A DNA stretch of 64,000 bases, taken from the NCBI GenBank assembly GCA_001777575.1, contig MFEL01000010.1, positions 84,661 to 148,660 on the forward strand, read 5' to 3'. The translations under genes and the position numbers were made by a program. The notes under the pieces are model-generated. The model made no database searches and was not told the DNA's origin. It saw nothing but the letters and a program-made list of their open reading frames with translations. Source of the stretch: Candidatus Doudnabacteria bacterium RIFCSPHIGHO2_01_FULL_46_24 (lineage in GTDB: Bacteria; Patescibacteriota; Doudnabacteria; UBA920; O2-02-FULL-48-8). Shown in pieces: positions 10,628-59,267 of the stretch (position 1 is the stretch's first letter; every line of letters begins with the position of its first letter).

Positions 10628-10649
10628 GTGAGCGGTTAAAAGTTAATAT

Positions 10650-12062
10650 TTACCATCCAAACTGTCTGCCCACGTCCTCTGCCGTCTCTCTCCTGCGCGC
10701 CACTTTGATTTCCCCATTTTGAGCAATAAGTTTCGCAGGCGAAGACAATAAGCAATGATGCGAAGCCAAGGCGTCCTGATACGCGCCAGTGTCAAAAAAC
10801 GCCACAAACAGCTCGTCACAATCCTCCAGCCGCGGCATGGGAATGTAGTCACCTCCAGCCGTGTATTTGTCATCCGAATCACAAGAAGAGCCGGCAAACC
10901 ACACCGGCTGCAGCTTGCGCGAATTCATGCAGTTGACCGGCACCACATGCCATTTCTGGTGGATGGCCCAGGTGTCCAAAAGATCATTCATGAAACTGCC
11001 ATCCACGACATACCATTTTTTATGGTTTTTGACGCTGACGTCTTTTTCGGTAATGATTTTATATATCGTGATCTGCGCCGGCGCTGCCACGTAACTCCCC
11101 CACTCCACAATTAAGTTCGGATGCCGGATACCCAGCTTGTCGCACTCTTTTTTGGCGGTTTTGACAATCTGATGAATCAAGCTCTTGCCGGAATAAAAAT
11201 GCTTTTTCTTCTCAAACGGAATGCCAGCCCCGCCGCCGATATCCAAGATCATCAACCCCGGGTTTTTTTCTTTCATCCCGGCAAACAACCGTAAAGCCCG
11301 TTTCAGGGGCTTGGTAAACCCCTTAATAGTGATGATCTGTTTGGAAATATGATAATGCAAAGTGGAAAGATTGCGAACCTTGCCGATCTTAAGCAATTCT
11401 TCTTCGGTAAATCCGTAACGGTTAAACTTCTTATCCCAATGCGCCTGGACTTTGATATCCAAATTCACCCGGATCCCCACCTCGCCCTTAAATTTCTTCA
11501 ACCGCTCCAGCTCGTTGTAGTCCTCGATGATCGGCACGACGATCAAGCCTTTGCCTTTCAGCTCCTCAATTAAGCTGATGTATTTTTCCGTTTTGGGACC
11601 GTTACAGATGACCCTGATCTTGCGGTTAAACTTGTCCTGCTCAATCATCCTCTTTACCAGATACAGCTCATTGGCCGAAGCTACGTCCAAGTTTGCGCCC
11701 TCGGCCACGGCCGGCAGCACGAATTCCTTGGTCTGGTTGGCCTTCATGGCATAATGGTAATAAAACCGGCCCTTGTAGCCTAAAATTTTGATATAGGCGT
11801 TAAAAGTTTCGATCAGGTCCCGCACGCGGTTCTCCATGATAGTTGGAAACACGATCTCAGTCGGGCTGCCGTATTTTTTTACCAAGTCATGGACATTGTA
11901 CTGGTAATTACCTTCCCTCACGATCAATTCGCCGTCAGGACCAATATCAAAATTCTGGGTGTTGAATTCTTCCAGCCCCAGCCGCCAAAATTTTTTGAAA
12001 CCGTTCTTCTTTTTTCTCTTCCTAACCGTTTGGTTCTTTTTCACTCGTTTATGATAAAGCAA
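10650..12062 (-). CDS. speA: PLP-dependent decarboxylase, fold III; probable arginine decarboxylase
   Basis: YAMKAN PLP-lysine motif, ILDIGGGAGIPF, and CDSDD substrate motif. Adjacent agmatinase supports the arginine-to-agmatine step. Confidence 0.7.
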   Translation of the reverse strand: MLYHKRVKKNQTVRKRKKKNGFKKFWRLGLEEFNTQNFDIGPDGELIVREGNYQYNVHDLVKKYGSPTEIVFPTIMENRVRDLIETFNAYIKILGYKGRFYYHYAMKANQTKEFVLPAVAEGANLDVASANELYLVKRMIEQDKFNRKIRVICNGPKTEKYISLIEELKGKGLIVVPIIEDYNELERLKKFKGEVGIRVNLDIKVQAHWDKKFNRYGFTEEELLKIGKVRNLSTLHYHISKQIITIKGFTKPLKRALRLFAGMKEKNPGLMILDIGGGAGIPFEKKKHFYSGKSLIHQIVKTAKKECDKLGIRHPNLIVEWGSYVAAPAQITIYKIITEKDVSVKNHKKWYVVDGSFMNDLLDTWAIHQKWHVVPVNCMNSRKLQPVWFAGSSCDSDDKYTAGGDYIPMPRLEDCDELFVAFFDTGAYQDALASHHCLLSSPAKLIAQNGEIKVARRRETAEDVGRQFGW

Positions 12063-21987: not shown

Positions 21988-22362
21988 CTTTAAGTAAGCG
22001 AGCAGTCGCCCAGCCCCAGTTTGCAAAAACTGGAGCTGGGAGGAAAGTCCGAACACGTTTGTTGGATTGAGTCTCATGAGTTAATTCAGCATCAGGTAGC
22101 GGGTAACGCCCGCCAAAGGGTAACCTTAGAGTTGCGAACAGAAACGACCCGGTTAAGTCCGGCTGAAACGCGCTAAATACTTACCTGACAGTGCAATGTC
22201 GAATAGGTCCTGTACCGGAGCGAAAGCGACTGGTACCAGGGCGGGTAGACAGCTTGAGCCTAACAGCAATGTTAGGCCTTAGATAGATGATTGCTTCCCC
22301 AGCTCCAGTTTGCAAAAACTGGAGCTGGGTCAGACAGAATTCGGCTTACAGCTTGCTTAAAG
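21988..22362 (+). ncRNA. rnpB: RNase P RNA (bacterial type)
   Basis: P4 5' strand GGGAGGAAAGTCCGAACAC and P4 3' strand ACAGAATTCGGCTTACAG. A 12-bp P1 stem forms between 21988-21999 (CTTTAAGTAAGC) and 22351-22362 (GCTTGCTTAAAG). GGGTAACGCC and ACAGAAACGACCCGG elements are present. Confidence 0.8.
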
Positions 22363-22367
22363 AGCAT

Positions 22368-43501: not shown

Positions 43502-45232
43502 TCAGGGTATAACATTTCCTTTTTCGTAAGCTTCAACCTCGGCTTGCGGCAGGATCGTGGCTTTGGGGTAGCGGGCTTTTTTGTAGGAGACAGCTGTGAA
43601 CATGCTCAATACGCCATTTTCGACTTTGTAAATCGCAGTTGACTGGTCGCCCTTAAGCACGGTGCCGTCTTTGGGCGGGAAGGGCACGCCCGTTGGGATT
43701 TGGTTGAATTCTTCCGCCCCGATCATCAGGCGCGGGAAGTTGCCCACGCTTCTTTGTTGGAACACGAACGCGGACACAAACTGTTTTTGCCCATTCTTAA
43801 ACCAAAAGATGCCGGTGTCCCCTTTCAGGCTGATGGAAATCGATTCCGGCGGGTAAACAAACTGGCCCGAAGGAATACCCAAGACTTCGGCGTCTGTCAA
43901 TTTCATCAGCTTGGCAAACGAAAACTTGCGCGCCACAAACACTTCGTAAGAAATCGGGCGCTTCAAGCCGGCGTCAACCAGATACACGGTCAAATCGGTT
44001 TCGCCCGTGATGAGCGTGCCGTCAACCGGGGCAACAAACGAACCGGTTTCGTAAGAGTCAACTTCAGCTTGGGGCAGGGTCACGACATTGGCAAACGAAA
44101 ATTTGCGCTGGACGAATACCGGATAAGAAATGGCGTGCTTTTTGGTGTCTTCAATCAGATAAACGGCCGGACTGACATCACCTTTGATGAGAGTGCTGTC
44201 AAGCGGCGGCATGGGTTTTTCCGAAATATAGGAATCGAACTCGGTCTGCGACACGCTGATGACATTATTCGTGTTGATTTTGCGCTGTGTCGCCACGAAT
44301 TGAGAAAACGGCCGTTTGGCGCCATTGTCAATGACGTAGAAATTCGGATCGCCGACTAACTGGATGACTGTGCCATTGGGATACTTAAACCACAGCGAAT
44401 AATATCGCCAAAAATTGTAATTGCCGTTGAAGACGTGCGGTGTATAACGGTAAAGCGCGGCTGTGGCAAAATTGCCCAAAGAAAGGCTTTGGGTTGCGGC
44501 CACGTTGTCAAAGCCGCCTAAAGTGTTGTCCAAGATGATCGTATCCCCTTTCCGCGCGGTTCTGGCAATGGGCCTGCCAAAAGTCTGGCTGGAGGCATCC
44601 ACGCCCGGGCCGCGGCCCACACGCACGCCGCCGACTTCAGTGCGGAACGATTTCATTAGAGAAGCAGCCGCGCCCAGCCACCGGCTGCCGGAAGAATCAA
44701 AACTGCCGAACAGCTGCCGGTAAAAACCCAAAAAGATTTCGCCGCAGCCTTCGTAATCCGGGCAACCAAACCCCAAGGCGCGGTCCAGGCGGTTCTGCAA
44801 ACTGTTGCCGTTAAAATTGCCCAAAATCAGGCTTTGCTCTTTTTGCAGCATGACCAGCATCACCTGCGGATTTAACCCCTTGGAAACCGAGGCGTCATAA
44901 ATCAACTCGGAGGCAGTGCGCAGCCGGCCCAAATTGGGACTGGGGTCCTCGAGCGCGACCTTGGTCAGGGTGTCCGGCTCTTTGAGTTTGAGCAAAAAAT
45001 CCTGGCTGGTGTCGGCCAGCAAAGAGTTGTGCTGCTCGAAAAATTTCTGAATGCCGGCAGCCGAGCCAAAAGTGCCAACATCGGCAAAAGCCTCGTCAGG
45101 GATCAAAAGGCTGGGATTGAAAGCCGGATCAATCGCGCCCTGTCCTAAGGCAACGAGAGGCGCGGAAATCACAAATCCTAAAGTCAGAACTACCAATATT
45201 TTGGCTTTTGAATTTTGACTTTTTAATTTCAT
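43502..45232 (-). CDS. Secreted protein with four C-terminal tandem repeats of about 45-50 aa, shared with the adjacent S8 protease
   Basis: Signal peptide MKLKSQNSKAKILVVLTLGFVISAPLVALG. Repeats such as YLVDAGLKRPISYEVFVARKFSFAKLMKLTDAEVLGIPSG. 4-nt overlap with the upstream gene. Confidence 0.5.
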   Translation of the reverse strand: MKLKSQNSKAKILVVLTLGFVISAPLVALGQGAIDPAFNPSLLIPDEAFADVGTFGSAAGIQKFFEQHNSLLADTSQDFLLKLKEPDTLTKVALEDPSPNLGRLRTASELIYDASVSKGLNPQVMLVMLQKEQSLILGNFNGNSLQNRLDRALGFGCPDYEGCGEIFLGFYRQLFGSFDSSGSRWLGAAASLMKSFRTEVGGVRVGRGPGVDASSQTFGRPIARTARKGDTIILDNTLGGFDNVAATQSLSLGNFATAALYRYTPHVFNGNYNFWRYYSLWFKYPNGTVIQLVGDPNFYVIDNGAKRPFSQFVATQRKINTNNVISVSQTEFDSYISEKPMPPLDSTLIKGDVSPAVYLIEDTKKHAISYPVFVQRKFSFANVVTLPQAEVDSYETGSFVAPVDGTLITGETDLTVYLVDAGLKRPISYEVFVARKFSFAKLMKLTDAEVLGIPSGQFVYPPESISISLKGDTGIFWFKNGQKQFVSAFVFQQRSVGNFPRLMIGAEEFNQIPTGVPFPPKDGTVLKGDQSTAIYKVENGVLSMFTAVSYKKARYPKATILPQAEVEAYEKGNVIP

Positions 45233-47235
45233 AGTATTGGGCTCCCGGGGGCAATGACCTCAATCTCTGCTTGCGGCAGAATTTTAATGCTCGAAAACTT
45301 GTAGCCGCGGGAAACGAAAGCATTATAAGACAGCGGCCGACGCGTACCGTTTTCAATCACCGAAACTTCAGCAGATGCGGCTGATTTGACCAAAGTACCC
45401 TCCAACGGCGGCAGCCAGTATGAATCGCCGGGTGCCGGAATATGTAAAAATTCATCCTGAGTCACGGAGATGACTTTGGCGAACGAAAGTTGGCGCTGGG
45501 TAAAGATAAAATAAGTCACCGCTCGTCTCACTCCTTGGTTCATAACATATACCGTAGGATCGCCCTTAATCAACACCATGGTGCCATCATAAGGGGCAGC
45601 CCACTCGCCGGTTAGGACATCCGCCACTTCAGAGCTGGAAAGCGTATAGACATTGGCAAAACTGTAGCCGCGGGTTATAAACACCAAATAAGTCAACGGC
45701 CGCTTGAATTCCTGTTCAATGACATACACCGTCGGGTCAGTCTCATTTTTTATCAACGTGCCCTCAAGCGGCGGCAGAGCGGGACCGGCTGGGAAGGCAG
45801 CGAGCTGATTTGAGACCTCATTGGTTATTGAAGTCTCGCTAAAGCCGCGCTGATTGAAGACAAAGCTCGAGATGAAACGTTTGGTGGAACCCGAGATGAG
45901 ATAAATCCTCCCCGTGACGGATTCACGAATAAGCGAGCCCTCGCTTGCCGGCAGGGGTGATAGCGCTTTCAGCGCATTGATTCTCCCTTTCCCCAAAAAA
46001 CCGTTGCAGGAAGAGCCAAGGCAGTTGTCTTGGTTTACGGCATCAATATTATCGGTAGAGCGAAGCAAAACGTTACGCAGTTCGACATTGCTTAAATTGG
46101 GGCTTGCGGATTTGACCAGCGCCGCCATTGCCGAAACTATGGGGGTGGCCAGTGAGGTGCCTGAGCCATAAATTAAGACATTGTTGGCGGGATCCGAAGG
46201 CAGATAGGCGGTGGTTAAAATCTTTTTGCCGGGAGCTGAAACATCCACGCAATTGATGCCAAAGTTGGAAAAGTTAGCCTTGCGATCGGAAACATCAGTG
46301 GCGGCAACTCCCAAAACCATGTTTGAGCCGAGATCCGAACAAATGGGGTAAACCGGCTTGGTGTCCAAATTGCTGCCTTGATCAGCTAAATCATTGCCGG
46401 CCGCGGACACGATCAAAACACCCCGATTAAAGGCATAGGAAATCGCATTGTTCAAAGCCGCGTCAGCGCCAAATCCGGGACCCCCGAGGCTTAAATTGAT
46501 AATCTGAGCACCATGGTCTGAGGCCCAAACAATCCCGGCGGCGACCGCGGCGACGGTGCCTGTACCGTCGGCATGCAAAGCTTTGATCGGCATAATTTTC
46601 ACACTTTGGTTTACCCCGGCGATGCCTCGGCCGTTGTTGGGAATAGCGCCGATCACTCCGGCAACCGCCGTGCCGTGGCCGTTATCATCAGAGTTGGAAT
46701 TCGCCGGGATGGTTTCATTTTTTATTGTGTCGTAGCCTTCGATAATGCGGCCATCATTAAGTTCGATGTGCGAAGCATGAATGCCGGTATCTATAACCGC
46801 AATTGTGACATTGGAACTGCCCCGCGACAACTCCCAAGCCTCAGGAATTTTTACCCTCGCCAAATACCATTGCTTTTCATCCTGAGTCGAATCAACCGTG
46901 AAATAAGGATCGTTGGTGATGATGGTCGCGGCTGCAAGTTGACGATTGGGTTGGACATACTCAAAAACATTATCCGATTGCATCGCTTTGACTAGATAAC
47001 GGCTGATCCTCCCGCTGTAAACGGTTTGCAAGCCATTGTGAGCCTCATACACAAGCTGGTGGCTCTGAAACGGGTACTTCGCCAAAACCGTCTGGCTATT
47101 CCCTGGGTCCTTGAGTCCAAAAACAATATCGACTCGCTGTTCGTTAAAAAATACGAATACGGCACCAAATAAAAAAATCGGCAGAATAAGCGCTGCAAAA
47201 ATTTTCCAGTTCAATTTGTGAAGTGTAAAAGTCAA
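45229..47235 (-). CDS. Subtilisin-like serine protease (peptidase S8) with the same C-terminal tandem repeats
   Basis: Catalytic triad motifs VAVIDTGI (Asp), HGTAVAGVIGA (His), GTSLATPIVSAMAAL (Ser). N-terminal TM/signal. Four C-terminal repeats, e.g. YVIEQEFKRPLTYLVFITRGYSFANVYTLSSSEVADVLTG. Confidence 0.8.
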   Translation of the reverse strand: MTFTLHKLNWKIFAALILPIFLFGAVFVFFNEQRVDIVFGLKDPGNSQTVLAKYPFQSHQLVYEAHNGLQTVYSGRISRYLVKAMQSDNVFEYVQPNRQLAAATIITNDPYFTVDSTQDEKQWYLARVKIPEAWELSRGSSNVTIAVIDTGIHASHIELNDGRIIEGYDTIKNETIPANSNSDDNGHGTAVAGVIGAIPNNGRGIAGVNQSVKIMPIKALHADGTGTVAAVAAGIVWASDHGAQIINLSLGGPGFGADAALNNAISYAFNRGVLIVSAAGNDLADQGSNLDTKPVYPICSDLGSNMVLGVAATDVSDRKANFSNFGINCVDVSAPGKKILTTAYLPSDPANNVLIYGSGTSLATPIVSAMAALVKSASPNLSNVELRNVLLRSTDNIDAVNQDNCLGSSCNGFLGKGRINALKALSPLPASEGSLIRESVTGRIYLISGSTKRFISSFVFNQRGFSETSITNEVSNQLAAFPAGPALPPLEGTLIKNETDPTVYVIEQEFKRPLTYLVFITRGYSFANVYTLSSSEVADVLTGEWAAPYDGTMVLIKGDPTVYVMNQGVRRAVTYFIFTQRQLSFAKVISVTQDEFLHIPAPGDSYWLPPLEGTLVKSAASAEVSVIENGTRRPLSYNAFVSRGYKFSSIKILPQAEIEVIAPGSPIL

Positions 47236-48960: not shown

Positions 48961-49120
48961 AAGACCAGTAATAAATGAAAAAACCGAATCGCTTTCGGTT
49001 TTTGTTTGGGTTTGTGTTATTTCAATTTAAGAATAAAAAATAAAAACCAGCTTGGCAAATCAGCCGTTTTAAGCTCATTTACCAAGCTGGGTCTGTTTTA
49101 TCCCCATGACGCGGCCTATA

Positions 49121-49744
49121 TTATATTATGCTTCGTTTGAAACGGTAGATGGAAACAGAAAGTGTTATGCCTAAGGCTAGAATGAAGCTTAGCCAGCCAG
49201 ACGGGCCGCTTTGCGGGGCGTATGCCCCTGCCACATTGCCTGGAGTTTCCCCGGGACTGCCGCCAGCGCTTGATGGCGAAGGGGTTGGCGTCAAAGCCTG
49301 CGCTCTGGCCACTGCCACGCTAGTTTCATTCCCGAACCTCAACTTCATTACCAAATCAGAAGAAGCAGGCAAGTCGTTTTTGACCCTCACCGTGATTTTC
49401 TTCTGGATGGACCCGTTAGCCGGCACGTCCAGCGGCGTCCAAACCAGCGAGCCGGTAGCCGAGTTATAATTAGCCCCTTGGGCATCCACAAGCGTGGATA
49501 ATTCCTGCAAGTCCATAATGCTGGCCTCCACGATATATCCGGCCAGAATCTCTTTGCCAGGATTCTCCACTGTGAGAGCGTAAACCACACTCTCGCCGGG
49601 CTGGACCAAAGCAGCCGAAGGAGAGACGGAAGTCATAGCCTGCGGAAGAGATTTGCTCTTTTGCCGTTGGAGGAAATAAACACCGCCTAGAATCAAGAGC
49701 AAAACCACCAAACCGGCAACGGTTTTCGCAATGTTATTGGGCAT
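49121..49744 (-). CDS. Small DUF11-type surface protein with an N-terminal TM and a C-terminal sorting-signal-like YAPQSG + TM + basic tail
   Basis: ...NVAGAYAPQSGPSGWLSFILALGITLSVSIYRFKRSII at the C-terminus. Confidence 0.5.
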   Translation of the reverse strand: MPNNIAKTVAGLVVLLLILGGVYFLQRQKSKSLPQAMTSVSPSAALVQPGESVVYALTVENPGKEILAGYIVEASIMDLQELSTLVDAQGANYNSATGSLVWTPLDVPANGSIQKKITVRVKNDLPASSDLVMKLRFGNETSVAVARAQALTPTPSPSSAGGSPGETPGNVAGAYAPQSGPSGWLSFILALGITLSVSIYRFKRSII

Positions 49745-52700
49745 GATTTCGAAGCTTAAATCTGAATTTCTCTTTTCTTAAGGCATATGATGCCACGGTC
49801 AGCGAGGCAAACAAGAGGCTTAGGGCCAAGGTCGCTCCGGTTTTGGGCGCTATGAATTCCCCGCCCACTCGGGGCACGCGCACATCTACGCGATTGCCGT
49901 AGAAGTTGGTCATGACGAAATCCGACGCGGACGGAAACGCGGACCGGACGCGGACTGTAAAGACTTTATCCACCTTACTGCCAGCGGGAACCGTTACTGC
50001 CGGCCAAGACAACTTGTACAAGCCAAGGTTGAAAGTGGCATCGCCAAAAGAGGTTAATTCCGCCAGCTCCAGGATGTCCCTAATGTCATCTTCCACCACG
50101 AAATTTGTAGCCGCTTGATTGCCGCGATTTTCCACCGAGAGAGTATAGACAATGATATCGCCGCTTTGGGCCGTAACAGTCGTCGCATCCACTCCCCTGG
50201 TCTGGTTAAACGCGCGTTTGCTTTGAAGCAAATCAATGTTGCCGCCCAAGACCCGCCCGATTACCGTTACACTCGCCGTGTCAGTCATGGACGTGGCATT
50301 GTCGGCAAACACGGTTGCGGCATTAATGTATGTGGTGTCAACAGACACATTCACAACGGTAACTTCAAAGGTGATATTTCGGCTCGCCCCAATGGCCATA
50401 TCACCCAGACGCAAATCGGTGTTGAATAAATCACCGCTGAAAGAAGTCGAGCCGTCCAGCCTGACAGAACCGCTGTTCAAGCTTAAGGCTGATGGCAAAG
50501 AATCAATCACCCGGACATTGCGGGCTGTTTCTGTGCCGTTGTTGGTCACGGTCATCCTAAACTCCACGCGCTCAGAAGCCCTGGCTGAAACCGAATCAAA
50601 GAATGAGGTGCCGGCGGTCAAGTTCCGAACTTGCTTGTTAAGCGATAGTGAAGCGAGATTGCCGCCCACTCCCTCGCGAGAGACAATGACAATGGCGTTA
50701 TCCGTCACTGATTGAGTGTTGGATGACGAGGCTGTCGCGGTGTTAACCCAGGAACTGGAGCCAACCGGGAAATTGGAAGCGGAAGCCGCGGTCGCAGAAA
50801 TCCTGATTGTCCGGCTGCCGCCGGCTGACATATTGCCCAAACTGAAGGTCAAAGAACCGGTTTGGGTCGTCCCGCTGTCAGGCGTGACGAAGTTGAGATT
50901 GAAGTTCTGAGGCAAGATGTCGGTCATCGTGACATTGTTGGCAGTTGAATTATTAGCGATGACTATGACACGGAATTCCACCTGCTCGCCAGGACGGGCT
51001 GAAATCGATTCAGTGAAAATGGTCTGGCCCTGCGTGGCGTTACGGACGGTTTTCTCAATGCCTAAGATCGGAGGAGGGGGAGGTGGCGGTGGAGGAGGTG
51101 GCGGTGGCGGTGGAGGCGGCGCAACGCCTCGGTTTACAACCACATGCGCGGTATCCGACACCGGACTTACCTCAACAGCCGCTGCTGTGGCCAGGTTAGT
51201 CCAGGTAGATGTGCCGATTGGGAAATTGGACTCAGAAGCGGCAACTGCAATTAGCCGGACGCTTTTGCTGCTTCCTGACGCCATATTCCCCAAATTGAAG
51301 GACAAGGCAGTGGGACCTGAAGTTACCCCTGTATCAAGCACGACAAAAGCCAAGCTGAAGTTGTTCGGTAGGACATCGTTCAAACCAACGCCATTGGCGG
51401 TCACTGACCCAACAGAGGATACCACAACCCTAAATTCTACTTGTTCGCCAGGCGCAGCAGCCACGGAGTCGATAAATCTGATCTGGCCTTGGGAAATGTT
51501 TCTGACGGTTTTTTGAATGCTCAGCGCAGGCAATCCGGGCGGCGGAGGGGGTGGAGGAGGAGGAGGAGGAGGCGCAGTTGTTCTGGTGACTACAACCTGG
51601 GCATTATCCGTAATGGAATTAACATTGGAGGCTGAGGCTGTGGCAACATTGACCCAGGTGGAAGAGCCGACTGGGAAGTTTGCTTCAGAAGCGGCAATCA
51701 CCCGTAAGAAGATGGTCTTGCTCGCTCCCCCGGGCATGTTGCCTAAATTAAATGAGGTCGGAGTGGGACCGGCAGTTACTCCTGAATCAAGCACCACGAA
51801 ATTGAGAGCAAAGTTGTTCGGCAAGGTATCGCTCAAAACCACGTTCTGAGCCGCAGCTGAGCCAGTGGATGTAACTGTGACCCGGAACTCCACGTGCTCT
51901 GCAGGCAACGCGGCCACGGAATCAATGAAAGTGGTTTGACCCTGCGACACGTTTCTCACGGTTTTTTCAATGCTCAAAGCCGGCACGCCAGGCGGCGGTG
52001 GAGGCGGCGGAGGGGGAATAAAAATATCATTATTGGTTGCCGTGCAGGTTTTATGGTCGCCCGCTGCCAAGTTGATTCTACCATTTGAGTCGCACTGCCC
52101 GCTCCAACCAATAAATTCATAACCGGAGCGGTTAGTTTCCGTGGCAAAGTAAATGCCCGGTGATAAAGTCACAGTCTGGCCGCTGCGCAACTCAAGCCCG
52201 CCGACGAACAGTGGAAAATCGGCAGGTTGGGCAGTGCCGCCGTTGTCATTGATGACTTGTTTGAACAAAGTGACTGAAGCTACTCCTGGCGGCGGAGGAG
52301 GTGGCGACGGCACCGGTGTTGGCGGCGGAGGAGGTGGCGGCGGCACAGGTGTTGGCGGCGGAGGTGGCGTTATCGGCGTGACAACCCTTAATTCAAAAGT
52401 CACGAACCGCAAAAATTCATAACAGCCGTTCATATCGCCCAAAGACGCCCCGCTCGAAACCACACTGTCGGAAAATCCGCCAAGCAAAACCGGGCCGCGG
52501 GCATACACTTGTGCCGAGCCGGGAATGTATTCCAGATAATCGCTGATTCCCATGCCCACGAACACGTCGCCGCCTTTCTGGCCGCTGGTGATGGTGGAGT
52601 GATTATTGGCCCAAGCAGAAGCGGCAAGTGTCGCAAATCCTCTGGAAGAAGGAATGTTCGCGGCAATCATGACATTACGCGCCACGTTTTCCGGAAAATC

Positions 52701-53990
52701 CAGATTGCCGTTATGGACATACAGTCTGACGCGGATAACATCGCCTGAGACAGCGGCAACATCACGCGTATAACCGGAGCCTCGCGTGAGATTTTTGGCT
52801 CTCAAAAGCGGGTAGTCGGTGCAGTCTGCCCCTGATTCGGAAATCGGCCAAATGTTTAGAAGCGGCTGCCCTCTGGGCGGGGTTGGGAAACAGCCTGATG
52901 GCGGAGGCGGGGTCGGGCCTGGCGGAGGCGGAGGAGGAGCTGGAGGTGTAACCAAGGGAATCAAAGACGCGTCAAGTTGGGTATTTGAATCAAGGGTAAT
53001 GTGATAATCGCGGCCATAATAATTCGGGTGGCGAAATTCAACGTTGAAGCCGCCATCATGGACATTGGAAAAATTGACCGTGCCGTTGCCGCCAGTAGTG
53101 CCGCGTGTGCCGTGGGAAGGGTTGCTGCGGTCATCAGCCACGAGCAGCACATCCACGCCTGATATCCGCAAGTCAAGCGACGGATCGCCTTCAAAGACTC
53201 TCACGAAAAGCGTGTGGCTTGAACCAGGAGGCGGCGGGGTCGGACCTGGAGGAGGAGGGACAGGTCCTGGCGGAGGTGTGGGGCCCGGAGGCGGAGTCAA
53301 AAAATTCAAAGACGCATCCAGTTGGGTATTGGAATCCAAAGTAATGTGATAATCCCTACCGTCATATCCGGTTTTCCTAATCTCAACATTGAAGCCGCCG
53401 GCATTGACATTGTCAAAATTAAAAGTACCGTCAGAACCGGTAGTCCCGCGCCATCCGTGCGATGGATTGCCGCGGTCATCAGCGACAAGCAGAATGTCGG
53501 CACCGCTTACCCGCCTGTTTAAAGACGGGTCGCCGTCAAAAACGCGGACAAACAAATCGTAAGTGGCATCTGAAGGAGACGGAGGAGGCGTTGGCCCAGG
53601 CGGCGACGCAATTACAAAAATCGAGGCGTCAAGCTGAGTATTGGAATCCAAAGTAATGTGATAATCCCTACCGTCATAGCCAGACTTCCGAACTTCAACG
53701 TTGTAACCGCCTTCATAAACGCCGCTGAAGTAATATGTGCCGTCTCCGCCCGAAGTTCCCCGGACTCCATGCGACGGGCTGTCGCGGTCATCGGCCACGA
53801 GTAAAATATCAGCGCCGGAAAGCCTCTGATCCAAGGACGGATCGCCCTCAAACACGCGCACAAACAAATCGTGCTGGTTGCCGGTTATAGCCGAGCTCGA
53901 CCCAACGAAAGAAACCACGGATGCCAAAACCAAAGCCGCGCCCATGATGCGCGCGATGTTTGATCTGGAAATGTTCTTGATATATTGCAT
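49734..53990 (-). CDS. Giant (about 1420 aa) proline-rich surface protein: three N-terminal beta-sandwich repeats, three DUF11 repeats separated by poly-Pro linkers, and a C-terminal IAPKTG sorting signal
   Basis: Likely start at MQYIKNISRSNIARIMGAALVLASVVSFVGSSSA (signal peptide). The track's extra 145 upstream codons overlap the neighbouring GC-rich gene. C-terminus is ...FIAPKTGATLALSLLFASLTVASYALRKEKFRFKLRNHAQ. Confidence 0.7.
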   Translation of the reverse strand: MQYIKNISRSNIARIMGAALVLASVVSFVGSSSAITGNQHDLFVRVFEGDPSLDQRLSGADILLVADDRDSPSHGVRGTSGGDGTYYFSGVYEGGYNVEVRKSGYDGRDYHITLDSNTQLDASIFVIASPPGPTPPPSPSDATYDLFVRVFDGDPSLNRRVSGADILLVADDRGNPSHGWRGTTGSDGTFNFDNVNAGGFNVEIRKTGYDGRDYHITLDSNTQLDASLNFLTPPPGPTPPPGPVPPPPGPTPPPPGSSHTLFVRVFEGDPSLDLRISGVDVLLVADDRSNPSHGTRGTTGGNGTVNFSNVHDGGFNVEFRHPNYYGRDYHITLDSNTQLDASLIPLVTPPAPPPPPPGPTPPPPSGCFPTPPRGQPLLNIWPISESGADCTDYPLLRAKNLTRGSGYTRDVAAVSGDVIRVRLYVHNGNLDFPENVARNVMIAANIPSSRGFATLAASAWANNHSTITSGQKGGDVFVGMGISDYLEYIPGSAQVYARGPVLLGGFSDSVVSSGASLGDMNGCYEFLRFVTFELRVVTPITPPPPPTPVPPPPPPPPTPVPSPPPPPPGVASVTLFKQVINDNGGTAQPADFPLFVGGLELRSGQTVTLSPGIYFATETNRSGYEFIGWSGQCDSNGRINLAAGDHKTCTATNNDIFIPPPPPPPPPGVPALSIEKTVRNVSQGQTTFIDSVAALPAEHVEFRVTVTSTGSAAAQNVVLSDTLPNNFALNFVVLDSGVTAGPTPTSFNLGNMPGGASKTIFLRVIAASEANFPVGSSTWVNVATASASNVNSITDNAQVVVTRTTAPPPPPPPPPPPPGLPALSIQKTVRNISQGQIRFIDSVAAAPGEQVEFRVVVSSVGSVTANGVGLNDVLPNNFSLAFVVLDTGVTSGPTALSFNLGNMASGSSKSVRLIAVAASESNFPIGTSTWTNLATAAAVEVSPVSDTAHVVVNRGVAPPPPPPPPPPPPPPPPPILGIEKTVRNATQGQTIFTESISARPGEQVEFRVIVIANNSTANNVTMTDILPQNFNLNFVTPDSGTTQTGSLTFSLGNMSAGGSRTIRISATAASASNFPVGSSSWVNTATASSSNTQSVTDNAIVIVSREGVGGNLASLSLNKQVRNLTAGTSFFDSVSARASERVEFRMTVTNNGTETARNVRVIDSLPSALSLNSGSVRLDGSTSFSGDLFNTDLRLGDMAIGASRNITFEVTVVNVSVDTTYINAATVFADNATSMTDTASVTVIGRVLGGNIDLLQSKRAFNQTRGVDATTVTAQSGDIIVYTLSVENRGNQAATNFVVEDDIRDILELAELTSFGDATFNLGLYKLSWPAVTVPAGSKVDKVFTVRVRSAFPSASDFVMTNFYGNRVDVRVPRVGGEFIAPKTGATLALSLLFASLTVASYALRKEKFRFKLRNHAQ
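52950..53900. repeat. Three tandem repeats of about 310 nt (roughly 90% nt identity between copies 2 and 3) inside the giant protein gene, plus several GGN/CCN runs encoding poly-Pro
   Basis: Near-identical stretches such as ccaaagtaatgtgataatccctaccgtcata at about 53335 and 53648. Poly-G/GGN runs at about 51061-51120, 51521-51575, 52281-52380 and 53225-53290. Confidence 0.7.
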
Positions 53991-54000
53991 AGTTTGGAAA

Positions 54001-54063
54001 AAAGAGTTGTGGTGACGAAATCCGCCGGCTGGCAGAAAGCTATCGCCACCACGATCCCTTGCG
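54001..54063 (-). terminator. Rho-independent terminator after the GC-rich secreted-protein gene (GGTGGCGA...TCGTCACC then CTCTTTTTTCC)
   Basis: Seen directly on the minus strand. Confidence 0.55.
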
Positions 54064-55020
54064 TTATGGCGACCCGCCCGGATTGGTGGGCCGACCATCT
54101 CCTCCTTTGATGGGCTCCCGGTTAATCCGCCTAAAACCTCGATCCTTATCCAGGAGCGCCCAGGCAACGCCGGCCCCAAGCGGCGGGACCCAGCAGCGCC
54201 AGGCATACTTGCCGCAGACACTGCCTCTGCGCTCGTTGACGTACGAGTCACGGATCCGGTACACCTCAGGTGCGCCTTCCGGGATCCGGACAACCAAGCG
54301 TTGCGTCTGGTCGCGGAAGCCCTTGACTTCTCCGAGTTCCCTGATGACAAGCGCGGATCCAGGCTCGACGCCGACGAAGGTGATCTTCGTGCCGTCGAAA
54401 TGGCCACGGATCTTGTCTCTTTCACTCGGCTGGCCGATGAAGGTAACTGAGCTCCACCCCTTGGGCGGATCCAGTTCCTTGTCGCCCTTGAGCCAGAGTT
54501 TGGGGATGAGCACGGTTACGAGCCTCTGAGGCTCAGGAGGCGGCGGTGGCACGAGCGGCGGAGGAACCACGATTGGCTCCTCTCGGATGACTACTGGCTC
54601 CGGCTTGACCGGAATGCTGACCGGCCGCGAATTGCCGCACTGCTTGCCGTTTGACGACCCATAATCGAACAGGTCGCGGCCTTGGGCGTCCTGCGCCACT
54701 TGGGTCCCTTTCGGCCGCAGCACCCAGCGATCCCCATTGCGAGTCCGCATCCAGGTACACTCGTCGTACTCTTGGGTGCGAACCGAAGCGACCTTGACGC
54801 GGCTGGTGTACCGCATCAAATGGACATCGAGCGGCTCGTAGTATTCCTGCGCCACGCATGCCTTGAGATCAGGCAGCGACGGCGGAAAACTGACGAGGCT
54901 CGACGGATAGCCGCGGTAACGGTCATCCGGCGCGATATCCGAAGACTGCGCTAGCGCGAGAACGGGCAGCAGTGCGAACAGCACTGCAGCCGCGACGATC
55001 AACCGTACATGCTGTCGCAT
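54064..55020 (-). CDS. Secreted hypothetical protein, markedly GC-rich relative to the flanking genes
   Basis: Signal peptide MRQHVRLIVAAAVLFALLPVLALAQS; Pro-rich linker PPPLVPPPPPEP. No family recognised. Confidence 0.45.
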   Translation of the reverse strand: MRQHVRLIVAAAVLFALLPVLALAQSSDIAPDDRYRGYPSSLVSFPPSLPDLKACVAQEYYEPLDVHLMRYTSRVKVASVRTQEYDECTWMRTRNGDRWVLRPKGTQVAQDAQGRDLFDYGSSNGKQCGNSRPVSIPVKPEPVVIREEPIVVPPPLVPPPPPEPQRLVTVLIPKLWLKGDKELDPPKGWSSVTFIGQPSERDKIRGHFDGTKITFVGVEPGSALVIRELGEVKGFRDQTQRLVVRIPEGAPEVYRIRDSYVNERRGSVCGKYAWRCWVPPLGAGVAWALLDKDRGFRRINREPIKGGDGRPTNPGGSP

Positions 55021-55242
55021 CTGTGCCCCTCCAAGGTCAGAAATCTAACTTAGGTTGTGAAAATGCCCCGCTCAAAGATACCTGAGCAGAACAGCCTATC
55101 ATACACTAACAATGCTCCTTTTGTCAACCCGCGAATTTAGCATATTGGCCTGATTGCTTATGCTCAATGGCTGAAGGCCACATATTAGCTGGCGTTTTTA
55201 GCTCTTTTTAGACAAATCGTCAATAAATTGTGGATGTAATAA

Positions 55243-55283
55243 CAAAACACCTCAACCGGAGTTGAGGTGTTTATTTTGGCTAA
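55243..55283 (-). terminator. Terminator module AACACCTCAACC-ggag-GTTGAGGTGTTTATTTTGGCTAA; near-identical to the metK terminator
   Basis: About 40 nt near-identical to the reverse complement of 7691-7735, differing only in the loop. U-rich on both strands. Confidence 0.65.
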
Positions 55284-55284
55284 T

Positions 55285-56733
55285 CTAAGCCTTTTTTGCT
55301 TTCTTCAAACGCCGCTGGCCAAAGATCACCCCGCTGCCCACAGTCAGGGCTGCCAGGATAAGGCTCAAGATAGACGAGGGGCCGGTTCTGGGAGCCACAA
55401 ATTGGGTGCTGGCTACGACAGAGGTGCCGGCCACAGCGGCAACATTAATGTTCGTGATGTTTCCAAAGTTGTTAGTCATCACGCGGTCGGTGGCTGAAGT
55501 GTTTCGAACTTTGATTGAGAATCTTTTTTCCATCTTGCTGGAAGCAAGAATATCCGCCGGCTGCCATTTGAGCTTCAAAGTTCCCAGAAAAAATTCCGCG
55601 CCGTTGAAATCCACCAGGTTGGAAAGCTGCAAGACATCTGACAAATCATCCCAAACGACATACGCCTGGGCCGTGCCGTTCCCGGTATTCTGGGCGGTGA
55701 GGGTATAGACGATGAGGTCATTCGGTTGGGCCGTCACTTCTGTGGCATTGCGGTTCTGCGTTTGGTTGAAAGCCTTGTGGCTGAGTACGATATTGATCGA
55801 AGTTCCGGCAACTGATCCGCCGCTCATCGCACCCTGGATGGAAACCTGGGCGCCGTCAGCCCGAACCGACCCGTTATCCATAGTCAGAGTCACAGTATTG
55901 GTAATCATGCTGCCGGTATCTATGCTTGGGATAATAATAACTTCATAGGTAATAACTCTGGTCTGGTTTTTGGCCAGATCACCTAACAGGAGATGGGAAT
56001 TGAACAAATCGCCAAAGAACGTATCCATACCCGCAACCTTCAGGGTGCCGGGAACAAACTTAAGGTTAATCGGCAGAATTTTATTGATGGCTTTAAGGTT
56101 GACTGCGGTGTCGCCGGTATTGCTGATGGCGGTTCTAAATTCCAGCTTATCGCCCAGGCGGGCTGGAATCAATTTGCCAAAAGCCGTGCCTTGCGTGACG
56201 TTGCGGCCTTCCATGGCGACCGCAATCAGCGGGTTGGCATCCCTGGTCACCTGAATCGCCACTGAGTTTATCAGCGGCAGTGTTGATTGAATTATATTGT
56301 CAGCCGTAGCGCTGGCAGTGGATGCATAAACGTTTTGCCCCGTGGGGAAATTGTCCGCGGTCCCTATGCGGGCCAGGAAAGTGCTGAAGCTGTTTGCCCC
56401 GACGGCTAAATTGCCAAAGTTGGTCAGATCGGTCCCGGAAACGCGGGTGATGCCGGCGGGCAAAGAAATTTGCACTCTGGCATTGGTCGCCACATTCCCG
56501 CCCGCATTGCTCAACTGTACGCGAAACTCAAGCTGATCGCCGGGTTTGCCTCCAATGCCAAAGTCAAACTCGGTCTGACCAAAAGTGACGTTTCTGGCCT
56601 GATACTGCAGGAATAATTTTGTTTGCGGGGCGGTTTGGGCGCCTGCCAAGCTGAAGCTGCCGGCTACGGCGAGGATTAATGCCAGACCAACCGGGATGGC
56701 GATTTTGTTTTTGAGTGGCTGAGTCTTAATCAT
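55285..56733 (-). CDS. DUF11-repeat surface protein with a signal peptide and a C-terminal VAPRTG sorting signal
   Basis: N-terminal MIKTQPLKNKIAIPVGLALILAVAGSFSLAGAQTA; C-terminal ...FVAPRTGPSSILSLILAALTVGSGVIFGQRRLKKAKKA. Confidence 0.6.
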   Translation of the reverse strand: MIKTQPLKNKIAIPVGLALILAVAGSFSLAGAQTAPQTKLFLQYQARNVTFGQTEFDFGIGGKPGDQLEFRVQLSNAGGNVATNARVQISLPAGITRVSGTDLTNFGNLAVGANSFSTFLARIGTADNFPTGQNVYASTASATADNIIQSTLPLINSVAIQVTRDANPLIAVAMEGRNVTQGTAFGKLIPARLGDKLEFRTAISNTGDTAVNLKAINKILPINLKFVPGTLKVAGMDTFFGDLFNSHLLLGDLAKNQTRVITYEVIIIPSIDTGSMITNTVTLTMDNGSVRADGAQVSIQGAMSGGSVAGTSINIVLSHKAFNQTQNRNATEVTAQPNDLIVYTLTAQNTGNGTAQAYVVWDDLSDVLQLSNLVDFNGAEFFLGTLKLKWQPADILASSKMEKRFSIKVRNTSATDRVMTNNFGNITNINVAAVAGTSVVASTQFVAPRTGPSSILSLILAALTVGSGVIFGQRRLKKAKKA

Positions 56734-56791
56734 AAGTTTTCTCCATCCCCGCGAAAGCCGACCTATCGGCGGGCAGGCGGGGGTCTAATTA

Positions 56792-57988
56792 TTATAAACT
56801 TTGCAAAATAGCGGTCACAACCAACCTGTCCTTGGCGGTGCCGATAGGCCAGCAGGTAGAGAGGTTGAGCTTGGCCGCGGAATTGTCAACAAACTGGGTT
56901 TGGTCATCGGGCCGATAGATGTTTTCCGAAACCACCTGGTAACGGTAGTTGTAAAGCTTGCCGTCAATGCCGTAGATATCAACGAACACGTCATCCCCCG
57001 GCTCAAGCGCATTAAGCCTGGCGAAGACTTGCTTGTACGGGTGCTTTTTCCAAGGGTAGTCCGAGGAGTGGCCGGAAATATAAACAGTCCCCTGCTCGCC
57101 GGGCATGGCCGTGCCGGGATAATGCACCACCCCTTTAGTTAAGTCAACCTCAAAATCTTTGGGGTCCTTGGTCCAGACAATAGGCACTTGCAAATTGAGT
57201 TTGGGGACGGACAGCCGGCCTTCTTTATTTACATCATACGAAATTTTGGTGGAACCCAAAACGTTCGGCGCTGTGGCGGGCATGAAATTAGTCGCGACAT
57301 TGAAGCTTAAGCGGTTGGAAATTTTGATCAAATCCAGCGCAGCCGCCAGCTTGCTTTGTTTGTCCGTCACCGCTCCCTCTCCCCAAAAATTGGTGCCATT
57401 GAGCACTTCCACTCCGTCTGTCATGCCGTCATTGTCCGAATCGGCCACGATCGGATTGGTACGAACCAAAAATTCGTCCAAATTGGAAAGTCCGTCGCGG
57501 TCAATGTCCTCAGTCGGCTCCAGCGCTTGCCGGTTGCCGACGGCAAAATAATATCCGCCCATCCACGCATAATATTCGCTCAGATCTTCTCCCAAAATCT
57601 GCTCGTCTTCCGGGGGCGCAAACCATCCCTGGACTTGGCTTACCAGGGCCGGGAAATTGAGAGCAGAATAAAAAAACAAAAAAGCGGCGATAAAGATGAT
57701 CGGATAAAATACGAAACTGGAACGCAGTAAGTTGGCTAGCAGCGAGCGGTCAGTCTTGATTGAAACGTGCAGGAGTTCTGGCTGCTCCTCAACCGCTTCC
57801 TGCTCCACAGGTCTGGGTAATCCCTCAGGGGCTTTTTCTGCGGCTTTCCCGCCCACTGTCAAATTTTCGCCGATGTTCAACAATCGGTGGATTTCTGAGG
57901 GGTAATACTCGGGAATGGGTAAATCGTTCATCATAAAATTAAATGTAGCGCAACGTATAAGGTTAGCACAAAAGCTTGAGTTTGTCAA
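56792..57988 (-). CDS. Sortase-family transpeptidase with an N-terminal TM and thrombospondin-type-3-like Ca-binding repeats
   Basis: Catalytic His (TVYISGHSS), Cys (LNLSTCWP, the TLxTC motif) and Arg (KDRLVVTA). DxDxDG repeats DIDRDGLSNLDEF / DSDNDGMTDGVEV. Confidence 0.75.
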   Translation of the reverse strand: MTNSSFCANLIRCATFNFMMNDLPIPEYYPSEIHRLLNIGENLTVGGKAAEKAPEGLPRPVEQEAVEEQPELLHVSIKTDRSLLANLLRSSFVFYPIIFIAAFLFFYSALNFPALVSQVQGWFAPPEDEQILGEDLSEYYAWMGGYYFAVGNRQALEPTEDIDRDGLSNLDEFLVRTNPIVADSDNDGMTDGVEVLNGTNFWGEGAVTDKQSKLAAALDLIKISNRLSFNVATNFMPATAPNVLGSTKISYDVNKEGRLSVPKLNLQVPIVWTKDPKDFEVDLTKGVVHYPGTAMPGEQGTVYISGHSSDYPWKKHPYKQVFARLNALEPGDDVFVDIYGIDGKLYNYRYQVVSENIYRPDDQTQFVDNSAAKLNLSTCWPIGTAKDRLVVTAILQSL

Positions 57989-58034
57989 TACTAGAGCAAA
58001 TAGGTTAATATTTATATGGGTGAAGCTGATAAAA

Positions 58035-59267
58035 ATGCGCCTGAAATACTACCTTTTAGCAAACGAAGAAAATGACTACCAACCATGGATTCTGCGTTCC
58101 AGCGCGTTGGCGATATTTTGTTTGACCCTTTGGGGGCTTAGGATATTAATCCCCCTTTCCTTCACTTATGCTTCTCCCGGCATTGATCCCGTGGATTTGA
58201 TGAACCGGATAAACGCCGAGCGCACCAACCGTTTTGTTCCCGCTCTTATAACCAACCAAAAGCTCATTTCCGCCGCAGCAAGCAAGGCGGGAGACATGAT
58301 AGACCGCGGTTACTTCGCCCACGTCGACCCGGACGGCAATTACGTCTGGCCGCGGATTGAAGCGGCCGGCTATAACCCCTACCTGACTCTGGGAGAAAAT
58401 CTGGCCATGGATTTCAACTCAGCAGCTCCGCTTATGGAAGCTTGGATGAATTCACCCACTCACCGCGCCAACATCGTCAACGAAAAATTCCAGGACCAGG
58501 GCTTGGCTGTGGCTGAAGGCTTGTTTGAGCCTGGGCACAATACGATTACAGTCGCCAGCTTGTTTGGAACCCTGCTGAAACCGGCAACTCCGACCCCACA
58601 GCCAACACCAGCGCCATCATCCGGTCCCGCTCCTTCGCCGGTTCCGACTCCAGTCCCCGCTCCGGCTCCGACTACTCCAGGACCGCAGCCTCAGCCAGCG
58701 CTTCTTCCTGCCAAAACACCACCCCCGCCGCCTGCTCCCCAACTCCCCTTACCCCCCCAACCCACTATAAGCATCAATCCCGACATCAAACTTAACCAAA
58801 AATTCATCGGCGACAACCAAATCCTGGAACTGGACGTAATTATCTCCGGCAACCCCAAAACCGCGACCGCCGCTATCAAAGACAAAAAAATCCAACTTCT
58901 GCCCTCAGCCATCATCGGGCAATACCTGGGAGTTTTGACCTTTCCCGCAGCCGCCAACTTGTCAGAAGAAAAATTAACAATTGCGGCGGATGGCATCAGC
59001 AGCCAATTTGACCTCAATCATTTGAAAGAAAAAAAACCAACAGCCGAAAACTCGGTTGTCGGCGGGCCTGCGGGTCAGGAAACCGCATTTCCCATAATTC
59101 TTAAAATTGTCTTCACCGTCTTTGCCGCCGTCTATTTGACTTTCCTTGTCGTTGATTCAATAATTATCCATCGGTCAAGAATAAAACGGGTCAACCCCCA
59201 TTCGAGCTCGCACTCGCTGTTATTGATGCTGATTATTGCCTTGAATTTCATCTCAATCTGGCTCTGA
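58035..59267 (+). CDS. CAP/SCP/PR-1 domain protein with a Pro/Thr-rich linker and a C-terminal TM
   Basis: From the internal start MRLKYYLL (the track ORF starts 40 codons earlier). CAP motifs ...RINAERTN...GYFAHVDPDG...GENLA...MNSPTHRANIVN. Linker PTPQPTPAPSSGPAPSPVPTPVPAPAP. Confidence 0.65.
   Translation: MRLKYYLLANEENDYQPWILRSSALAIFCLTLWGLRILIPLSFTYASPGIDPVDLMNRINAERTNRFVPALITNQKLISAAASKAGDMIDRGYFAHVDPDGNYVWPRIEAAGYNPYLTLGENLAMDFNSAAPLMEAWMNSPTHRANIVNEKFQDQGLAVAEGLFEPGHNTITVASLFGTLLKPATPTPQPTPAPSSGPAPSPVPTPVPAPAPTTPGPQPQPALLPAKTPPPPPAPQLPLPPQPTISINPDIKLNQKFIGDNQILELDVIISGNPKTATAAIKDKKIQLLPSAIIGQYLGVLTFPAAANLSEEKLTIAADGISSQFDLNHLKEKKPTAENSVVGGPAGQETAFPIILKIVFTVFAAVYLTFLVVDSIIIHRSRIKRVNPHSSSHSLLLMLIIALNFISIWL

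Follow-up and report, generated by a model that had tools for sequence, protein, structure and literature searches.

A probable sortase/substrate cassette of Doudnabacteria with an [F/Y]-x-[A/S]-P-x-[T/S]-G sorting signal in place of LPXTG

The sortase, its substrates and their sorting signals

The DNA analysed here, referred to as the window, is a 64 kb stretch from Candidatus Doudnabacteria RIFCSPHIGHO2_01_FULL_46_24, an uncultivated, ultra-small groundwater member of the Candidate Phyla Radiation (CPR, or Patescibacteria). Its minus strand carries five co-oriented genes, coding for a sortase and for proteins of 482, 318, 1418 and 207 amino acids (aa), the 1418-aa protein being referred to as the giant (Table 1). 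The 482-aa, giant and 207-aa proteins end in sorting signals with the core APxTG or APxSG, and the sortase together with these three putative substrates is the subject of this report. The locus had been singled out from its sequence alone, and the claims made then, referred to as the original prediction, are taken up where results bear on them.

The sortase product matches PF04203 (E=3.7e-21; 75.6 bits, cutoff 26.6) and TIGR01076 sortase_fam (45.2-45.4 bits, cutoff 39.35), and contains the motifs ISGHSS, LSTCWPIG and KDRLVV. A 100% identical database protein (P0001), listed as a hypothetical protein of Ca. Doudnabacteria, starts at Met20 of the window open reading frame (ORF; 56792-57988, minus strand), which reaches further, to a TTG at 57988. 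The predicted product is a type II membrane protein with a cytoplasmic N-terminus, one transmembrane (TM) helix, a thrombospondin type 3 (TSP3)-like module, a helical linker and a C-terminal catalytic domain. His288 (in SGHSSDY), Cys360 (in NLSTCWPIGT) and Arg369 do not vary among 34 aligned homologues of 49-69% identity, and the triad is kept in nearly all of the 80 related loci described below. Also invariant in the alignment are Y76, F80, F84, F87 and N92 of the TM anchor, where the model has a helix at residues 62-91, and D343-Q344-x-Q346-F347 of the beta6/beta7 loop, which has the consensus PDDQxQF(I/V)DN(S/T). In the AlphaFold model the catalytic core (pLDDT 85-95) is set behind a helical stalk, and Foldseek matches it to many solved sortases in the PDB (E about 1e-12, probability 1.0), class C enzymes heading the list ahead of C. 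diphtheriae SrtA, C. perfringens SrtD and class E; identities are 20-25% throughout. The best match in a profile search of PDB sequences is also class C (38 bits), with the class C TLxTC aligned to LSTCWPIG. A sortase with a His/Cys/Arg active site, as originally predicted, is thus borne out by the family match, the predicted fold and the invariant triad.

Class placement was judged by scores on the NCBIfam class models, which have cutoffs of 140-166 bits. The window sortase scores 69-71 bits on class D, 47 on C, 45 on E, 26 on F and 23 on GN, all below the cutoffs, and the class A and class B models do not match it. All 34 aligned clade sortases lie far below every class cutoff (best class E-value 4e-21), as do the far-clade sortase of locus L036 and the outgroup sortase of locus L075. 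In line with this, the homologues go under varying database names ('class D', 'class E', 'sortase A', 'sortase'). The sortase clade falls outside the curated NCBIfam classes, and the PF04203 profile search that had been proposed as a check of the sortase ORF gives a clear match outside all of them. Nor is the window enzyme a pilus sortase of class C by the lid and C-terminal TM criteria, since a regular-expression search finds no DP[WFY] lid motif and there is no C-terminal TM segment, the protein ending 10 residues past the catalytic Arg.

The 482-aa protein ends in FVAPRTG-PSSILSLILAALTVGSGVIFGQ-RRLKKAKKA, the giant in FIAPKTG-ATLALSLLFASLTVASYAL-RKEKFRFKLRNHAQ and the 207-aa protein in AYAPQSG-PSGWLSFILALGITLSVSIY-RFKRSII; in each, the motif is followed by about 20 uncharged residues and a Lys/Arg-rich end. 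The arrangement of motif, hydrophobic segment and basic tail that the original prediction described is therefore confirmed, at the positions it gave, for all three C-termini. Signal peptides are predicted on all three proteins. The pattern AP[KRQ][TS]G has three matches in six-frame ORFs of at least 80 aa, where residue shuffling (n=200) yields 0.26 on average and never more than 2; the motif is thus non-random. When the whole window was scanned for xxPx[TSA][GANS] with a hydrophobic run and a basic tail behind it, only the three cassette proteins and one spurious alternate-frame ORF came up. LPXTG, LAXTG and LPNTA are absent from the cassette substrates, as had been claimed, and from the window. 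On the LPXTG_anchor model TIGR01167 the 482-aa tail scores 14.5 bits (cutoff 15.9) and the other two are unmatched.

The 482-aa protein matches PF01345 in three stretches (E=8e-16; 58.8 bits, cutoff 24.6) and TIGR01451 (E=1e-17). The giant, for which the start at 53990 (MQYIKN...) was chosen as it gives a signal peptide and avoids overlap with the 318-aa gene, matches PF01345 in five stretches (E=1e-44; 151.6 bits, same cutoff), PF13620 (E=2e-15) and PF19403 (26.4 bits). Its order is signal peptide, three CarboxypepD_reg-like domains, a central domain without a family, a SpaA_2 prealbumin-like domain and five DUF11 stretches, with seven poly-Pro linkers of 5-17 residues between domains. The linkers are encoded by short imperfect GGN/CCN repeats (51070-51119, 52287-52367 and 52899-52943), which are potential sites of length variation, and the giant probably acts as an extended adhesin or spacer.

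The 207-aa protein consists of an N-terminal TM or signal segment, a DUF11-like beta-sandwich, a Pro/Ser/Thr-rich linker and the sorting signal. Its PF01345 score of 23.7 bits is marginally under the cutoff of 24.6, and a 100% identical database protein (P0271) has a precomputed PF01345 assignment. The terminal domains of the three substrates align at 32-45% identity, by which the 207-aa domain is clearly homologous to the terminal domain of the other two. The AlphaFold model of this protein has a mean pLDDT of 62 (about 75 in the beta-sandwich domain), Foldseek finds beta-sandwich or CBM-like matches of a generic kind only, all above E=1e-3, and a PDB sequence search with the terminal-domain profile gives nothing under E=0.18; from a modest model and weak matches, neither a specific fold nor an isopeptide triad can be claimed for it.

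Related loci were collected by a scan of one genome per species, which gave 80 loci with roughly 1.3 Mb in total. Nearly all are from metagenome-assembled genomes (MAGs) of Patescibacteria, most of them labelled Doudnabacteria or generically Saccharibacteria. Five contigs with Doudnabacteria-type synteny (L006, L007, L009, L071 and L078) are labelled Verrucomicrobiia, Binatia, Acidobacteriaceae, Bdellovibrionales or Micavibrio, which probably reflects binning or labelling errors in the source MAGs. The conserved gene order is rmlA, then a polytopic membrane protein of 300 aa and, oppositely oriented, a CAP/YkwD-like protein. The sortase comes next, in some loci with a secreted 318-aa-like protein behind it, and is followed by large DUF11 proteins (one or two), a protein of ~210 aa, a GalE-like epimerase, a GT2 glycosyltransferase and S8 subtilases (one or two). 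This order holds as sortase identity to the window drops from 67% to 30%. One sortase is present in the 64 kb and one in each related locus. Motif-bearing substrates adjoin the sortase on the same strand in 42 loci, so that the originally predicted motif recurs beside orthologous sortases and is strictly linked to them. Most loci have the giant and a small protein only, and orthologues of the 207-aa protein follow the giant gene in 12.

Substrates were collected by an unbiased search for C-terminal hydrophobic segments with basic tails and then by homology. The signal is present in 55 of 57 complete homologues, the exceptions being one APTVG variant and one unanchored paralogue; 12 further homologues, outside the 57, are cut by contig ends. 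With the Thr numbered P1, a logo of 58 tails has F (40) or Y (16) at P6, V, I or T at P5, A (54) or S (4) and no Leu at P4, P at P3 in all 58, K (42), then T, P, Q or R, at P2, T (53) or S (5) at P1, and G at P1' in all 58. The motif lies 24-39 residues from the C-terminus, and every tail has a Lys/Arg-rich end. Large proteins typically have F-[V/I]-A-P-K-T-G-A and small ones Y-x-A-P-x-[T/S]-G followed by P or I, the window 207-aa protein being slightly off register with its Tyr at P5. In the small proteins the aromatic residue is fixed beside the motif, even though the linker that precedes it differs between homologues in both length and sequence; the residue must accordingly be counted as part of the signal, not of the domain fold. 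The motif first given for the window, [V/I/Y]-A-P-[K/R/Q]-[T/S]-G, is thus real, but the conserved signal is longer, [F/Y]-x-[A/S]-P-x-[T/S]-G. Across the roughly 1.3 Mb no LPXTG-type tail was found, save one false positive of FtsW/RodA type in L064.

An independent set was obtained by searching a profile of the window's three terminal domains against 1.84 billion representatives of 50% identity clusters. This search found 5206 relatives, of which the best 150 were examined for their tails. Among these, 40 end in [A/S]PxTG, with F or Y at P6 in 36 of the 40, and minor variants at P4 in the set are Ser (5) and Pro (2), as in FVSPKTG and YYPPKTG. In other lineages, the giant relatives with multiple repeats have LPxTG (18) or LAxTG (14) tails and no P6 aromatic; the lone VPxTG tail, on a 3751-aa protein (P0179), groups with these other-lineage relatives. 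Because DUF11 relatives elsewhere use canonical LPxTG or LAxTG, [F/Y]xAPxTG reads as a lineage-specific switch coupled to this sortase clade.

Readings of the cassette

We regard it as probable that the locus is a dedicated sortase/substrate cassette of a clade of Patescibacteria, mainly Doudnabacteria, in which the LPXTG pentapeptide has been replaced by [F/Y]-x-[A/S]-P-x-[T/S]-G. The sortase would be a membrane-anchored cysteine transpeptidase with its catalytic domain outside the cell on a stalk, and the three signal-peptide-bearing DUF11 proteins would be exported by Sec. By analogy with other sortases, the hydrophobic segment and basic tail would keep the exported precursor in the membrane, Cys360 would attack the Thr-Gly (or Ser-Gly) bond of the signal, and an amine of a peptidoglycan precursor would resolve the thioacyl intermediate, giving covalent fixation to the wall; retention, attack by Cys and resolution by an amine are established sortase chemistry. 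The same 64 kb codes for SecA, MurB, a Mur ligase and MurG, and Sec export and lipid II synthesis, which are prerequisites of sortase anchoring, are thus available. A P4 position occupied by Ala and never by Leu, together with the additional aromatic at P6, suggests a co-evolved binding groove, with a P4 pocket that would take Ala (less often Ser or Pro) and a P6 aromatic that would give a hydrophobic contact. The obvious candidate for a determinant of this groove is the DDQxQF beta6/beta7 loop, because the corresponding loop reportedly sets P4 specificity in S. aureus SrtA (a result attributed to Bentley et al. 2007).

Several observations weigh against this reading. P4 tolerates Ser and Pro, and P2 is variable. 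The clade-consensus tail passes the generic LPXTG-anchor models (TIGR01167, 24.4 bits against 15.9; PF00746, 20.6 against 20), which makes the signal a variant form of the LPXTG-type family rather than a kind of its own. A sub-group of the sortases is without an adjacent DUF11 substrate (e.g. L069 and L072), and L062 and L073 are two sortase paralogues in one MAG (ERP119705_co23_139). The comparison covered ~10 kb on each side of the sortase, and more sortases or substrates may lie elsewhere in these genomes.

The first two of these points could also describe an ordinary LPXTG-type sortase with a relaxed P4, in which Ala would be lineage drift, LPXTG would be accepted equally and there would be no new specificity class. 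Ser at P4 in 4 of the 58 locus tails, Ser (5) and Pro (2) in the representative set, the variable P2 and the passing scores on generic LPXTG-anchor models all suit this explanation, as does the finding that laboratory-evolved sortase A takes APxTG after changes in the beta6-beta7 loop (PMC9126251). We nonetheless consider it unlikely. Neither Leu, Ile nor Val stands at P4 in any of the 58 locus tails, with sortase identity down to 30%, or in the 40 [A/S]PxTG tails (where the absence of Leu holds by definition of the group); relaxed specificity should let Leu reappear, and its absence therefore counts against a relaxed P4. The conserved P6 aromatic goes with [A/S]PxTG only and not with the LPxTG or LAxTG relatives, and the beta6/beta7 loop bears a family-specific invariant DDQxQF.

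Similarities to class C enzymes raise the further explanation of a sortase-assembled pilus or fibre joined by Thr-Lys isopeptide bonds, in which the giant would be the tip, the 482-aa protein the shaft and the 207-aa protein the base. Class C pilus sortases provide the nearest solved structures and the best PDB sequence matches, and the set of one sortase and a large, a medium and a small substrate is like that of a pilus operon. The slightly different signal of the small proteins (Y-x-A-P-x-[T/S]-G, then P or I) and a weak match to the isopeptide-forming fimbrial D2 domain (TIGR04226, E=9e-4, under its cutoff) are also in its favour. However, the enzyme has neither the DP[WFY] lid nor the C-terminal TM segment and scores 47 bits on the class C model against a cutoff of 160, regular expressions find no YPK-type pilin motif or E-box in the three substrates, and most loci, with a giant and a small protein, have no candidate for a shaft. 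There is also no invariant Lys in 18 full-length homologues of the small protein, the sole invariant Lys of an 8-sequence alignment being Gln in L005, and a pilus is accordingly improbable. Least probable is that the tails are plain membrane anchors with an unprocessed APxTG-like sequence and that other proteins are the targets of the sortase. The three tails of the window do score below curated LPXTG-anchor thresholds and their processing is predicted from sequence, but all 58 tails have Pro at P3, Gly at P1' and either Thr or Ser at P1, the motif keeps to 24-39 residues from the C-terminus while its flanks vary, substrates adjoin the sortase on the same strand in 42 loci, and the homologous domain elsewhere precedes bona fide LPxTG or LAxTG signals.

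The TSP3-like module between the TM helix and the catalytic domain contains two EF-hand-like loops, of which the second matches PF18884 TSP3_bac as one repeat (25.4 bits, cutoff 25). D142, D144, D146, G147, D164, S165, G169, D172 and G173 are invariant in the 34 homologues, and D166, D168 and E175 nearly so (at least 90%). In a comparison of loci L020-L077 with the near clade L001-L021 and the outgroups L075 and L078, the loops are nearly invariant in the near clade, which includes the window, and degenerate in a larger sister clade (e.g. DNSGNGLSNFQK and DTLGLGMADS in L036), where substrates still carry FVAPKTG. The match and the conserved loops in the near clade uphold the original report of TSP3-like repeats in the sortase. 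Two or more intact repeats are present in the outgroup sortases of L075 (Moraniibacteriota), L078 and L071, and those of L075 and L078 have no adjacent substrate. This distribution suggests that the module was already present in the ancestor of a broader set of CPR sortases, and it is plausibly a calcium-stiffened stalk from the membrane to the catalytic domain, with calcium binding predicted from the loop sequences. The loops were also considered as the basis of signal specificity; this was rejected, as the far clade has kept FVAPKTG although its loops have decayed, and outgroups without such neighbours have intact loops.

A dedicated cassette with a replaced pentapeptide might be part of a broader picture, which we put forward tentatively and with some doubt. 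Taken jointly, the enzymes would form a separate class that reads a seven-residue signal and rejects LPXTG, they would be natural APxTG ligases orthogonal to SrtA, calcium would gate activity or reach through the TSP3 module in the sub-clade to which the window belongs, and the chief adhesin for cell contact in these episymbiont-like bacteria would be displayed by the cassette. That the proteins anchor the cell to a host or partner is conjecture and no more. Of the 'undescribed specificity class' in the original prediction, what stands is that the sortase lies outside the curated classes and that no description of a natural APxTG-type signal was found in the searchable literature; the support for the class itself comes from comparative genomics only.

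Sortases occur in more than half of CPR genomes (PMC6744442), and literature searches for the motif strings and for sortases in CPR/Patescibacteria gave only general statements that sortases are common there. Recognition by CPR sortases has been undescribed so far, and a concrete conserved enzyme-signal pair with named substrates can now be given. The large DUF11-repeat substrates are prime candidates for contact surface structures of ultra-small bacteria. LPXTG predictors and HMM cutoffs miss such proteins, and because the window's three tails fail TIGR01167, the surface proteomes of CPR are probably under-annotated.

Neighbouring genes and other features

The coordinates of the cassette and its neighbours are given in Table 1. 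The 318-aa secreted protein has no Pfam or NCBIfam match. Its relatives adjoin the sortase in L002 (on the opposite strand), L006, L010 and L012. Features common to these relatives are a Cys pair, a short hydrophobic stretch rich in Gly and Ala, and a C-terminus of ...PGGSP, ...PGVP or ...GRP. The 318-aa protein may be an accessory component of the cassette, its membership being uncertain. The 304-aa membrane protein and the CAP/YkwD-like protein are syntenic with the sortase in nearly all related loci. The former was considered as an alternative sorting enzyme and set aside, as it has no family match and nothing supports the role. The 668-aa member of the subtilase pair has four C-terminal repeats of about 70 aa (...PTVYVI...) without a family match, which could be wall-binding or substrate-processing domains.

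Table 1. Positions of the cassette genes, their parts and neighbouring features in the window
Feature	Positions	Strand	Remarks
Two tandem S8 subtilases	43502-47235	-	downstream of cassette; syntenic across clade
10-bp-stem hairpin, then T-run	48979-49003	-	downstream of 207-aa gene; consensus scan
Substrate 3, 207 aa	49121-49744	-	one DUF11-like domain and sorting signal
207-aa sorting signal	49124-49225	-	AYAPQSG at 49205-49225
Substrate 2, giant, 1418 aa	49734-53990	-	likely ATG start at 53990; full ORF 49734-54425
Giant sorting signal	49737-49856	-	FIAPKTG at 49836-49856
318-aa secreted protein	54064-55020	-	no sorting signal; between two sortase substrates
Promoter-like site	55098-55127	-	11/12 matches to consensus
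12-bp-stem hairpin	55245-55272	-	directly after 482-aa stop codon; consensus scan
Substrate 1, 482 aa	55285-56733	-	signal peptide and three DUF11 domains
482-aa sorting signal	55288-55401	-	FVAPRTG at 55381-55401
Sortase gene	56792-57931	-	379 aa from Met20 of ORF; start as in database homologues
Catalytic domain, residues 238-379	56792-57220	-	
Catalytic Arg369	56825-56827	-	
Catalytic Cys360	56852-56854	-	
beta6/beta7 loop YRPDDQTQFVDNSAAK	56870-56917	-	family-specific
Catalytic His288	57068-57070	-	
Two TSP3-like/EF-hand-like loops	57380-57520	-	between TM helix and catalytic domain
Loop 2 DSDNDGMTDGVE, residues 164-175	57407-57442	-	DxDxDGxxxxxE
Loop 1 DIDRDGLSNLDE, residues 142-153	57473-57508	-	DxDxDGxxxxxE
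TM anchor of sortase, residues 73-93, FVFYPIIFIAAFLFFYSALNF	57653-57715	-	hydrophobic stretch conserved in 34 homologues
CAP/YkwD-like protein (PF00188)	57915-59267	+	Pro-rich linker, C-terminal TM; divergent from sortase
Polytopic membrane protein, 304 aa	59275-60189	-	no Pfam/NCBIfam match

The hairpin after the 482-aa gene and the promoter-like site beyond it are weakly suggestive of two transcription units, one with the sortase and 482-aa genes and one with the 318-aa, giant and 207-aa genes, and the hairpin downstream of the 207-aa gene is likely, again suggestively, to mark the end of the cassette. Terminator-like sites as a whole are not enriched over shuffles in the window scan.

The sub-group of loci without a DUF11 giant comprises L051, L054, L056, L059, L060, L063, L064, L067, L069, L072 and L074, and its active-site strand is VALSTCWPVGT[VT][DA]RR. 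In L069 and L072 an anchorless protein of ~400 aa takes the place of the giant, ahead of the GT2 and S8 genes. Of the paralogues L062 and L073, one lies in a conserved cassette and the other on a separate contig with no adjacent substrate, so that the clade includes members with more than one sortase.

Elsewhere in the window, RNase P RNA class A (21990-22364, plus strand; 119.6 bits) is the sole Rfam match at the gathering threshold, and no tRNA genes were found in the 64 kb. A deoxyhypusine synthase-like gene (PF01916) adjoins an Orn/DAP/Arg decarboxylase gene (9638-12062, minus strand), a pairing that is unusual in bacteria and in this CPR genome is probably linked to the metabolism of homospermidine or polyamines.

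Comparison with known systems

The Doudnabacteria sortase shares with sortases of classes C, D and E (S. agalactiae SrtC1, B. anthracis SrtD and S. coelicolor SrtE1; PF04203, MEROPS C60) the eight-stranded beta-barrel fold, the His-Cys-Arg triad and a TLxTC-like strand. Its N-terminal membrane anchor is as in classes A, D and E, and its gene adjoins those of its substrates as in classes B, C and D. It differs from classes C, D and E in its 20-25% identity to solved sortases, its scores of 45-71 bits against cutoffs of 140-165, and the presence of an extra TSP3-like module and the DDQxQF beta6/beta7 loop. Unlike class C it has no lid or C-terminal TM segment, and its substrate tails end differently from those of class D (LPNTA or LPxTA) and class E (LAxTG). 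The Pam pilus of CPR (bioRxiv 10.64898/2026.03.03.709456) is a different, donor-strand-exchange system and is unrelated.

The loops in the stalk are reminiscent of the DxDxDGxxDxxE loops of TSP3 proteins (PF18884), such as Myxococcus CglD and MtsD, with weak matches to the TSP3 regions of both. In contrast to those proteins, the sortase has only two loops, which form the juxtamembrane stalk of an enzyme and are predicted to bind calcium. No paper joining a sortase with TSP3 repeats was found in the searchable literature.

Among sorting signals, the NPXTG proteins of ruminococci (NF033846) are likewise a lineage-specific swap of the first LPXTG residue within a tripartite signal, although P4 there is Asn and here Ala, and they belong to another phylum. 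The clade-consensus tail scores 19.3 bits on NF033846 against a cutoff of 23.5, and among the curated variants there is no model for an LPXTG variant with Ala at P4. The nearest described motif is the (S/P)PXTG signal of C. difficile SrtB, a class B enzyme (PMC4155245, PMC5118464), as the original prediction proposed and as comparison of the pentapeptides agrees. The two share Pro at P3, Thr-Gly at P1/P1' and a small residue replacing Leu at P4, and SPKTG and PPKTG of the C. difficile type occur as minor variants in this family. The systems differ in that the class B model does not match the Doudnabacteria sortase, Ala dominates P4 (54 of 58) and the P6 aromatic is conserved; the two enzymes have no relationship closer than the superfamily.

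In the searchable literature APxTG appears only as an engineered specificity of sortase A, used for example on histone H3. The evolved S. aureus sortase A variants F40 and cW11 are specific for APxTG (PMC9126251, PMC8248031, PMC11638967), which is the core of the Doudnabacteria signal. These variants are engineered class A enzymes with changes in beta6/beta7, whereas the Doudnabacteria clade is natural and unrelated, with a predicted activity that probably needs the longer [F/Y]xAPxTG context. APxTG-specific sortases are sought as tools, for example for ligation at the native APATG of histone H3, for which only evolved sortase A of reduced activity has been available so far; if the predicted activity is true, the [F/Y]xAPxTG enzyme family would be a natural source of orthogonal ligases.

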